DNA of 64,000 bases from a virus. This document shows positions 10,973 to 14,400 of the stretch, piece after piece. The position numbers and the translations under genes are program-made. Below the pieces are notes generated by a model. That model did no database searches, was not told the origin of the DNA, and saw only the letters and a program-made list of their open reading frames with translations. The stretch is from positions 104,901 to 168,900 of IMG/VR virus record IMGVR_UViG_3300007511_000003; one strand, written 5' to 3'. The stretch's first letter is position 1. Each line of letters begins with the position of its first letter.

Positions 10973-11467
10973 CTAGTGCCCTATGTGCCTCATATATACC
11001 ACTTTAATTCCCTCTTTCACCACTTGGTCCTGCGTTAACCCTAGACCCTTCGCTGATAGTTTTAACATACGATGGGTTGCAGCGTCAAGCGTTGTCATGT
11101 ATTTCACGGGTCGGTGGTCGGAACCCTTTGATATTTCGTTCGCTTTGGAGATGACAGAAGCCAGATAAACCGCTTGGTCTACCTGGCCGGAACCCTTCCA
11201 TTTGGAACAGAGTTGGGTGATATACTGGGTACCATACTTGACATACTGGGGAATGCGTATCTGGTGGGTGTTATAATGACAAATCCCGCACAGGGTTACA
11301 GTAGGACCGGTTTCCCCTCCGCAATGCCGAGGTACCACATGGTGTTCTTCCAAGCCATCTTTGTCTTGGCAAATCCAACAGTGGTCCAACTTCAATGTAC
11401 GCTTAATTTCCAAACGTTGTGCCCTTGTTAATACTTTAACTTGATGGAGCCGTGCGGGTTTGCCCAT
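10973..11467 (-). CDS. HNH endonuclease with possible C-terminal ribbon-helix-helix
   Basis: CWIC...EEHHVVP...GG...LCGICH; start moved to MGKP because a sigma70 promoter lies at 11486-11514. Confidence 0.8.
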   Translation of the reverse strand: MGKPARLHQVKVLTRAQRLEIKRTLKLDHCWICQDKDGLEEHHVVPRHCGGETGPTVTLCGICHYNTHQIRIPQYVKYGTQYITQLCSKWKGSGQVDQAVYLASVISKANEISKGSDHRPVKYMTTLDAATHRMLKLSAKGLGLTQDQVVKEGIKVVYMRHIGH

Positions 11468-11485
11468 ACCCAACACTACGACACC

Positions 11486-11514
11486 ATTGTAACATATACC
11501 AACAGAAGAGTCAA
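11486..11514 (-). promoter_or_regulatory. sigma70-type promoter
   Basis: TTGACT-17 bp-TACAAT. Confidence 0.75.
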
Positions 11515-11554
11515 GTAAAATTTCATGACTCGAAAAACCCAAGGATTTCAATGT

Positions 11555-11663
11555 CTTGCCATAGAAGAGCCCAGATGGAGGCAGGCAACGTTGGGCATGG
11601 ACGTTAGGCGGCACTCGGAGACCGGGGAGATCACACTATACACCTGGGCCCTTCTATGGCAAG
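11555..11663 (-). ncRNA. Long-stem hairpin RNA
   Basis: 23-bp stem (11555-11577 with 11641-11663); mismatches become G-U only on the minus strand; TGTAAATA at 11700-11707 upstream. Confidence 0.5.
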
Positions 11664-11734: not shown

Positions 11735-11822
11735 TGGAGCCAGGAACAGGATTCGAACCTGCGTTGGGTTTTCGCCGTCGGCTTACAAAGCCGCTCCTCT
11801 CGGCCGCTGGAGGGACCCTGGC
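11735..11822 (-). tRNA. tRNA-Thr(UGU), atypical, 15-nt variable arm
   Basis: GCCAGGG/TCCTGGC acceptor, U73, CCA, D stem CCTC/GAGG, anticodon loop TTTGTAA, T arm GCAGG-TTCGAAT-CCTGT. Confidence 0.75.
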
Positions 11823-11845
11823 AAATCAAGATTAGACTAGAGATA

Positions 11846-11919
11846 TGGACCTGCGTTTGGGTAGAACCAACAACCTAAGGCTTAACAGGCCCTCACTTTA
11901 CCAACCAAACTACTGTGGA
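11846..11919 (-). pseudogene. Degenerate or chimeric tRNA-Asn(GUU)
   Basis: 5' TCCACAGTAGTT..., anticodon arm AGGGC-CTGTTAA-GCCTT, ends in CCA, but the T loop is degenerate and acceptor strands do not pair. Confidence 0.6.
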
Positions 11920-11925
11920 TTAAGA

Positions 11926-12034
11926 TGGCACGTAGTAGGAATCGAACCTACGATTCTCGCTTAAACGGTTGATCAGTCCGCTATCGGCGAGCACAGACTC
12001 TGCCTGCGCGTTTACCACTCCGCCATACGTGCCA
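11926..12034 (-). ncRNA. tRNA-like RNA with collapsed anticodon arm and ~40-nt extra arm
   Basis: Acceptor-like TGGCACGTA/TACGTGCCA, D arm GCG-GAGTGGTAAA-CGC, T arm GTAGG-TTCGATT-CCTAC; middle CAGGC-AGA-GTCTG plus CTCGC...GCGAG arm. Confidence 0.7.
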
Positions 12035-12042
12035 CAAAGAAA

Positions 12043-12297
12043 ATATGGTGTGCTATTACGCCAAAGAGGAGTTCACCCTTACCATCTCTGGGGTGGCTTA
12101 CTACTTCACCAAGTGGCGCCCGTCGCCTATCCCTCATAGCAGGTGGTCCTGCAGAGCTCTTTATTTGGATGCCGCCACCCAAACGTTAGCCTAGAGGTTT
12201 CCCTGGTTCATGCCCTTGCAATCCAGGTACGTACTACAACTAACGGCCTTTGCCTCACTCTTTAAAGGATGGCTGCTTCTAAGCCAACCTCCCATAC
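12043..12297 (-). ncRNA. 23S rRNA GTPase-associated-centre (H43/H44) mimic RNA with ~195-nt structured insert
   Basis: GGAGGTTGGCTTAGAAGCAGCCATCCTTTAAAGAGTG...GCGTAATAGCACAC matches 23S nt ~1055-1104 (E. coli numbering, recalled from memory); closed by GTATGG/CCATAT. Confidence 0.85.
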
Positions 12298-12309
12298 CTT
12301 ATAGTATAT

Positions 12310-12790: not shown

Positions 12791-12957
12791 ATACCACAGG
12801 CTGGGCGTTACTCCAGCTACACGGTTTCTCACCAGGAATATAACCGGGATCACCTGGTAATTCGCACGAGCTACACTGGCATCAGGCCCTTATCCCTTGC
12901 CATTTGGGCAATATCCCTCCTGTCACCAGGAGGCCCCCGTTTACCGCGGGGCGGTAC
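12791..12957 (-). ncRNA. Multi-hairpin structured RNA of unknown class
   Basis: Closing stem GTACCGC/GTGGTAT enclosing hairpins CCCCG/CGGGG, CCTCCTG/CAGGAGG, TTGCC/GGCAA, ACCAGG/CCTGGT and GCTGG/CCAGC; no sense ORF. Confidence 0.6.
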
Positions 12958-14312: not shown

Positions 14313-14400
14313 TGGTAGGGCTGGAGGGAGTTGAACCCACGGTAGGTCGCCCTACGTCGGTTTTCAAGACCGGTACCTTTAACCACTCGGCCACCCTTCC
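14313..14400 (-). tRNA. tRNA-Ser(UGA) body with non-matching 3' acceptor strand (chimeric or pseudo)
   Basis: GGAAGGG...CTTGAAA loop and long V arm GTAGG-GCGA-CCTAC, but the 3' strand is CAGCCCT-A-CCA. Confidence 0.7.

Follow-up and report, generated by a model that had tools for sequence, protein, structure and literature searches.

A tRNA-shaped gene that lacks an anticodon loop and carries a long extra arm is confirmed as a real feature of the minus strand of a phage genome. Its pairing pattern shows a canonical elbow chassis that should be incapable of reading a codon. We favour, with moderate confidence, the reading that it encodes a functional RNA of the phage that has a tRNA chassis but does not decode, and in which host tRNA processing would serve to display a protein-binding arm. 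The window, i.e. the whole stretch of DNA that was analysed (64,000 nucleotides), is the end of a 168,900-base (169-kb) virus record rated 65% complete. As this record contains a tail sheath gene, the virus is a myovirus. An identical copy of the gene is present in 7 contigs of sibling strains, and an assembly error was thus ruled out as its source. A search for the elbow pattern in 2.0 Mb of reversed sequence gave 0 matches.

Anatomy of the gene and its tRNA island

All tRNA genes of the record lie in one minus-strand island (Table 1). The tRNA-shaped gene was matched by the Rfam tRNA model, a check suggested by an earlier sequence-only reading of this DNA, with 43.7 bits (E 5.5e-6; gathering cut-off 29), and its folding z is -2.9. 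Several claims of that reading were borne out directly: the T arm is perfect, the anticodon loop has 3 nt, and the acceptor (7/7 Watson-Crick) is extended by G-1:C73 and U-2:A74 to 9 bp, a tenth pair (G.U) being possible. Two others needed correction. The giant arm exists and has two 5-bp stems, but it is 36 nt rather than ~40 nt long; the D arm exists as well, but its motif is not specific for Leu/Ser, since tRNAs for His, Ser, Leu, Ile, Cys and Gln have it, those for His most often among the canonical ones. The D stem consists of 3 bp (GCG/CGC) and G13.A22. No lesion was found in the acceptor, D stem, T arm or 15:48 pair. The mature RNA is predicted to have ~107-108 nt, plus CCA if this is added. 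The cloverleaf is not the minimum-energy fold (-39.6 vs -42.7 kcal/mol); acceptor, short hairpin and long arm are common to both structures, and tertiary contacts could close the gap of ~3 kcal/mol.

Table 1. The tRNA-shaped gene, its parts and its neighbours (positions in the window)
Feature	Position	Strand	Support or remark
23S rRNA H43/H44 (uL11-site) mimic with insert	12042..12298	minus	8 nt upstream of the tRNA-shaped gene
tRNA-shaped gene, G-1 to A74	11926..12033	minus	108 nt
Acceptor 5' strand: G-1 (12033), then 1-7 GCACGTA	12026..12033	minus	pair probabilities 0.88-1.0
D arm GCG/CGC, G13.A22, A14, G15 at 12018, G18G19	12008..12023	minus	Rfam match and fold
Collapsed anticodon arm: 5-bp stem, 3-nt loop AGA (CAGGC-AGA-GTCTG)	11994..12006	minus	pair probabilities 0.98-0.99
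Extra (variable) arm, 36 nt: 5 bp, 4x3 internal loop, 5 bp, 9-nt apical loop ACUGAUCAA	11956..11991	minus	fold
Apical hairpin of the 36-nt arm	11964-11982	minus	fold
C48, Levitt partner of G15	11952..11952	minus	sequence; 15:48 covariation across the look-alike class
T arm GTAGG-TTCGATT-CCTAC, consensus T loop TTCGATT	11935..11951	minus	5/5 Watson-Crick
Acceptor 3' strand and C73	11927..11934	minus	then ATC: CCA not encoded in register
Decayed tRNA-Asn(GUU), directly downstream of the tRNA-shaped gene, ends in CCA	11845..11918 (approximate ends)	minus	Rfam 24.7 bits, below cut-off
tRNA-Thr(UGU), long variable arm, CCA encoded	11735..11822	minus	Rfam 37.2 bits
tRNA-Ser(UGA), broken acceptor stem, ends in CCA	14316-14397	minus	Rfam 33.7 bits
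tRNA-Ala	island	minus	Rfam 67.9 bits
tRNA-Gln	island	minus	Rfam 63.3 bits

The gene conforms to a canonical tRNA (RF00005) in its acceptor (7 bp), its D arm, its T stem (5 bp, with TTCRANY) and its elbow invariants, including U8, A14, G15:C48 and G18G19; it also has G26. Its nearest relatives in this family are tRNA-His, with which it shares the D arm and G-1:C73, the tRNA-His signature, and the class II tRNAs for Leu, Ser and Tyr, which have a long variable arm. It differs from canonical tRNAs in the size of its variable arm, in the unencoded CCA and in its anticodon loop, which is AGA where canonical tRNAs carry, on a 5-bp stem, 7 nt that include U33 and R37. The GUG anticodon and short variable loop of tRNA-His are likewise missing.

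We regard it as extremely improbable that this is an ordinary decoding tRNA, either interrupted by an intron or using the apical loop of the long arm (CU-GAU-CA) as a displaced anticodon. ARAGORN made no call without its intron option. In intron mode it proposed Ala(AGC) with an 18-nt intron, a call that was rejected: similar ones were forced on nearly all look-alikes, with scattered isotypes. Exhaustive single excisions between positions 26 and 48 did not yield a canonical tRNA, the criterion being a Y-U-NNN-R-N loop on a stem of 4 bp or more; among 300 shuffles, 62 yielded one. No bulge-helix-bulge was detected in the gene, nor did Rfam find a group I or II intron core in it. Archaeal tRNA genes with bulge-helix-bulge introns have a similarly long D-to-T spacer, but both their motif and a restoring excision are missing here. 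The virus record (rated 65% complete) yielded no tRNA splicing endonuclease, and also no RtcB or CCA-adding/poly(A) polymerase. The apical loop does have letters like those of C32/U33, and its hairpin is similar to a tRNA-Asn arm at E=5 (not significant), but it has no R37 and lies two helices too far from the elbow. With a complete elbow, a 3-nt loop and no excision that restores a tRNA, the view of the sequence-only reading that this is a non-decoding tRNA-shaped RNA, and not an intron-containing tRNA, is supported.

A tmRNA was not indicated by ARAGORN or Rfam; the gene has 108 nt and a D stem, in contrast to the tagged mRNA-like domain and stemless D loop of tmRNA. A Plastid-ycf2 match in Rfam on the plus strand (E 0.23; 23 bits vs a cut-off of 65.7) proved to be the antisense of the T arm.

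All five other tRNA genes of the island encode CCA. Two of them show that the island tolerates decay, the Asn gene being decayed and the Ser gene damaged; in both, the decay has hit the acceptor and T arm, two parts without any flaw in the tRNA-shaped gene. The tRNA-Thr(UGU) gene has G1-C72, C2-G71 and U73 besides its long variable arm. In E. coli, Thr(UGU) is the target of P2-OLD (PMC12445682). The gene behind the island (10973-11614) has an HNH-like CxxC...HHxxP...CxxCH pattern; its homologue begins at residue 68, so that the actual start codon probably lies further downstream, the 200 nt before it being non-coding. A structured non-coding stretch (12791-12957) without an Rfam match precedes tRNA-Gln. 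A promoter and terminator scan gave results at chance level.

Homologues and viral look-alikes

Homologues of the insert were sought by blastn in cultured phages and plasmids and by exact patterns in IMG/VR, JGI metagenomes and GTDB; none was found, and only words of the T and D arms matched. The long arm was not copied from elsewhere in its own genome. A search for related loci with one neighbour protein as query gave no match. No diverged homologue of the gene was found: the sibling strains are at least 99.5% identical and thus provide no test of insert conservation. The nearest related phage (loci L065/L400), with 52-62% protein identity on both flanks, has none of the island's tRNAs, and the island is lineage-specific. 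We counted this against a functional scaffold.

These observations bear on the possibility that the gene is a recent relic, i.e. an ordinary tRNA (His- or class II-like) that lost 4 nt of its anticodon loop and gained an insertion, its elbow being so far undecayed. We consider this rather unlikely. Two events would in principle suffice for the layout, the lineage-specific island holds the decayed Asn and the Ser with a broken acceptor, and conservation in an orthologue is lacking. Moreover, the stability of the whole insert only slightly exceeds that of dinucleotide shuffles (z -0.97), which also counted against a functional scaffold. However, the acceptor, D stem, T arm and 15:48 are free of lesions, and the decayed neighbours are damaged exactly there. 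Two 5-bp stems close the long arm (z -2.4 for the arm alone, dinucleotide shuffles), which was not copied from elsewhere, and both the layout and the loss of encoded CCA recur in many lineages. The argument of the sequence-only reading that intact stems speak against decay holds insofar as the stems are intact, but it is weak for a single gene with no diverged homologue and with decaying Asn and Ser neighbours.

The recurrence emerged when IMG/VR was scanned for a T loop preceded by the D-arm motif. D-to-T spacers of 25-37 nt belonged to ordinary tRNAs, and nearly all longer spacers to RNAs without an anticodon loop. The class was defined as viral sequences with a GGCGRARTGGTAAACGC-type D arm in which both acceptor and T arm are intact, the anticodon loop is missing and CCA is not encoded; the gene has all of these properties. 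The class comprises 65 distinct sequences, 48 of them non-redundant by insert, in 16 acceptor lineages, our gene included; L018 (misregistered), L026 (intron-containing) and L165 (chimeric) are left out of the final counts. At positions outside the search pattern, pairing is found in 327/336 cases in the acceptor and in 144/144 at T-stem positions 49-51. The Levitt pair 15:48 is A-U in 40 and G-C in 7 of the 48. The random stem decay that the sequence-only reading had named as evidence against its proposal is not seen in the look-alikes, which were selected by exact D and T motifs, a procedure that hides decayed copies. CCA is encoded by 1/48 look-alikes and, among canonical tRNAs that share their D arm, by 10/23 (Fisher p 2e-5, an optimistic value as the sequences are related and not independent).

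Several subfamilies have inserts with 90-99% conservation and an acceptor that has changed by compensation (at 10/14 positions in L025/L350). Because the insert is conserved while the acceptor turns over, it is the insert, and not an aminoacylation identity, that is kept in those subfamilies. These patterns of pairing and substitution show that selection acts on the elbow of the class and, in some subfamilies, on the insert as well. Across the class, the inserts are unrelated and slightly more structured than shuffles (38/48 below zero). Similarity between our insert and those of the class is at most 0.45, which is the background level, and no 6-mer insert motif or neighbour family is shared between this locus and the class. 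Membership is thus by the chassis alone and may be convergent. Judged by these comparisons, the gene is an orphan member of the class, near-identical siblings being the only relatives found.

A short hairpin followed by a long arm, as in our gene, is also found in L047, L106, L343 and L365, and many class members lie in loci without a detected ordinary tRNA. A pattern scan of GTDB gave 45 matches, mostly archaeal intron-containing tRNAs, so that the class seems largely viral. Two look-alikes compared with cultured phages gave no match. No description of the class was found in a literature search that had most subscription journals outside its reach. The class is widespread among phages and apparently unpublished.

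G-1:C73 is present in our gene and in 5 other non-redundant look-alikes. This might point to the acceptor end as the working part: after CCA addition, the RNA would be charged by HisRS, or would sequester a synthetase or a tail-cutting nuclease, without taking part in translation, and the arm would be incidental. Irregular G-1 tRNAs are indeed histidylated by E. coli HisRS and not used in translation (PMC5389517). However, CCA is not encoded, U-2:A74 can bury the end, the acceptor sequence of the class turns over faster than the insert, and the anticodon position has no GUG triplet. We thus hold this to be highly unlikely.

Some further genes came to light in these scans. Cultured Aeromonas phage 4_4572 (MK813943; L004) has an unannotated tRNA-shaped RNA in which an insert replaces the anticodon loop, ~2.08 kb downstream of an rRNA mimic of the type described below. 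Anticodon-less tRNA-shaped genes were also seen in bacterial assemblies (L354, Roseomonas; L387, Anaerolineales; L365, a Coxiellaceae bin). In two tRNA-Lys/Asn-like genes (L301, L288), a 60-70-nt insert interrupts the anticodon loop; it appears to contain a T-arm-like hairpin, and its end is close to CCA. The L026 gene (7825-7922) is a viral tRNA-Ser(UGA) whose anticodon is followed by an intron of 35 nt that looks archaeal.

The upstream rRNA mimic

At the 8-nt spacing given by the sequence-only reading, the gene is preceded by a mimic of the uL11 site of 23S rRNA. Mimics of this family gave more than 120 pattern matches in IMG/VR, with both halves present in 98 distinct loci. They also occur in cultured phages (among them Astolliot, UNO-G1W1, BF, 4_4572, pf16, Milchi, XacN1 and GAP32), and in those examined they are unannotated or lie under spurious CDS calls.

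The tRNA-shaped RNA might be processing punctuation or a partner for the mimic, with RNase P cutting at its 5' end, thereby maturing the 3' end of the mimic, and selection acting on the elbow only. The spacer is indeed only 8 nt, an ordinary tRNA follows within 60 nt in 23/98 mimic loci, and one lineage (L232, L253, L273, L295) has, ~35 nt downstream of its mimic, a tRNA-shaped RNA that bears two long hairpins and no anticodon loop. However, the ordinary tRNAs are of 13 isotypes, i.e. any isotype serves, and 64/98 loci have no detected tRNA behind the mimic. At the syntenic site of the nearest relative (L065:9185-9490, also L400), the mimic has its own TTGACA-17-TATCAT promoter and no tRNA after it. 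None of the 68 loci from the long-spacer scans carries a mimic, and the structured arm would be left unexplained. We thus judge this explanation very unlikely. Since the mimic of the nearest relative has no tRNA, most of the 98 loci have an ordinary one or none, and the count among long-spacer loci is 0/68, an obligate partnership is rejected on the strength of these comparisons. The suggestions of the sequence-only reading that the gene is a partner of the mimic or a signal needed for its maturation are therefore not supported. An RNase P cut may still free the 3' end of the mimic as a by-product.

Five loci that had been flagged as non-canonical beside the mimic (L002, L280, L286, L293, L315) turned out to be ordinary tRNAs that were misregistered. 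In a more distant relative (L399:5030-5330), the same site is occupied by a different, promoter-driven non-coding stretch of 300 nt that is not a mimic.

Known tRNA-like RNAs and a possible mode of action

Several known systems resemble the gene in part. The T4 RNAs rnaC (species 1, 139 nt) and rnaD (species 2, 119 nt) are also non-decoding, of similar size and located in a phage tRNA cluster, and rnaC likewise ends in a T arm; in contrast to them, our gene has a full cloverleaf with a D arm. Homology was rejected, as only a 9-nt word of rnaD (E 0.08) and the T loop align. Allo-tRNAs and irregular tRNAs (five-stem-junction allo-tRNA(UAU), E-loop tRNA, G-1 tRNA1) have extra stems on a tRNA body and G-1, and some irregular tRNAs are charged yet not translated (Mukai et al., PMC5389517). 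However, allo-tRNAs have a 12-bp acceptor branch of 8/4 or 9/3 and a 7-nt anticodon loop, whereas the branch here is 7/5 (8/5 with G-1). The long D stem with tetraloop of allo-tRNA and selC* was not found either, the gene having a 5-bp T stem and a 3-bp D stem. The Y RNA YrlA of bacteria and phages also mimics D arm, T arm and acceptor (PMC4201824), but is permuted, has a Ro60-binding stem and lies next to the Ro60 gene, whereas our gene has the canonical order, no Rfam match to YrlA and no TROVE gene in its record (rated 65% complete). In the engineered tRNA scaffold of Ponchon and Dardel (PMC3753655), the acceptor, T and D arms are kept and other RNA replaces the decoding region, as here; it is artificial, and its insert sits in the anticodon stem instead of mainly in the variable arm. 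By analogy, our gene is most plausibly related to this scaffold in function, not by homology.

How such a functional, non-decoding RNA might work can be sketched as follows. It would be co-transcribed with the tRNA cluster, and host RNase P would cut its 5' end, probably keeping G-1 as in tRNA-His. The 3' end would be trimmed and the RNA stabilised like a tRNA, while codon reading is excluded. For RNase P processing and 3' trimming, we infer from engineered scaffolds, which undergo processing and are stable in E. coli when their anticodon arm has been replaced (PMC3753655), and from YrlA, a substrate of RNase P and the CCA enzyme in M. smegmatis (PMC4201824). The chassis would thus mature, protect and display the extra arm, and the arm would bind a host protein during infection, which is the weakest step.

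As partner we prefer a tRNA-directed defence nuclease or sensor that would read tRNA shape, stems or the variable arm and not the anticodon; it takes about half of the weight that we give to a functional scaffold. Septu and retron-Eco7 cleave tRNA-Tyr in its variable loop (PMC13096335), OLD cleaves the anticodon stem (PMC12445682), and Cas12a3 recognises the T arm and acceptor (PMC12851939). Because there are known nucleases that read the variable loop, the anticodon stem, the T arm or the tail, our preferred guess is a bait or inhibitor shaped like a tRNA. More tentatively, and with clearly less confidence, we suggest that the tRNA chassis serves phages as a natural scaffold for expressing RNA effectors that change fast, and that the 36-nt arm would be a host-specific inhibitor of, or bait for, a tRNA-targeting defence protein, made in one transcript with the mimic of the rRNA GTPase centre.

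RelA activation requires that a deacylated tRNA bearing CCA be paired with a codon in the A site, and the RelA decoy considered in the sequence-only reading is thus disfavoured.

The gene seems to belong with the tRNA-like non-coding RNAs of phages, and its look-alike class seems not to have been published. Such genes are overlooked by annotation tools or wrongly labelled as pseudo tRNAs or as tRNAs with an intron. As a test case, our gene is weaker than the subfamilies with conserved inserts or the anticodon-less RNA of Aeromonas phage 4_4572. If the class is functional, phage tRNA clusters would contain a layer of non-decoding RNA effectors, and this would bear on the question why phages carry tRNA genes and on the long-unexplained species 1 and 2 RNAs of T4.
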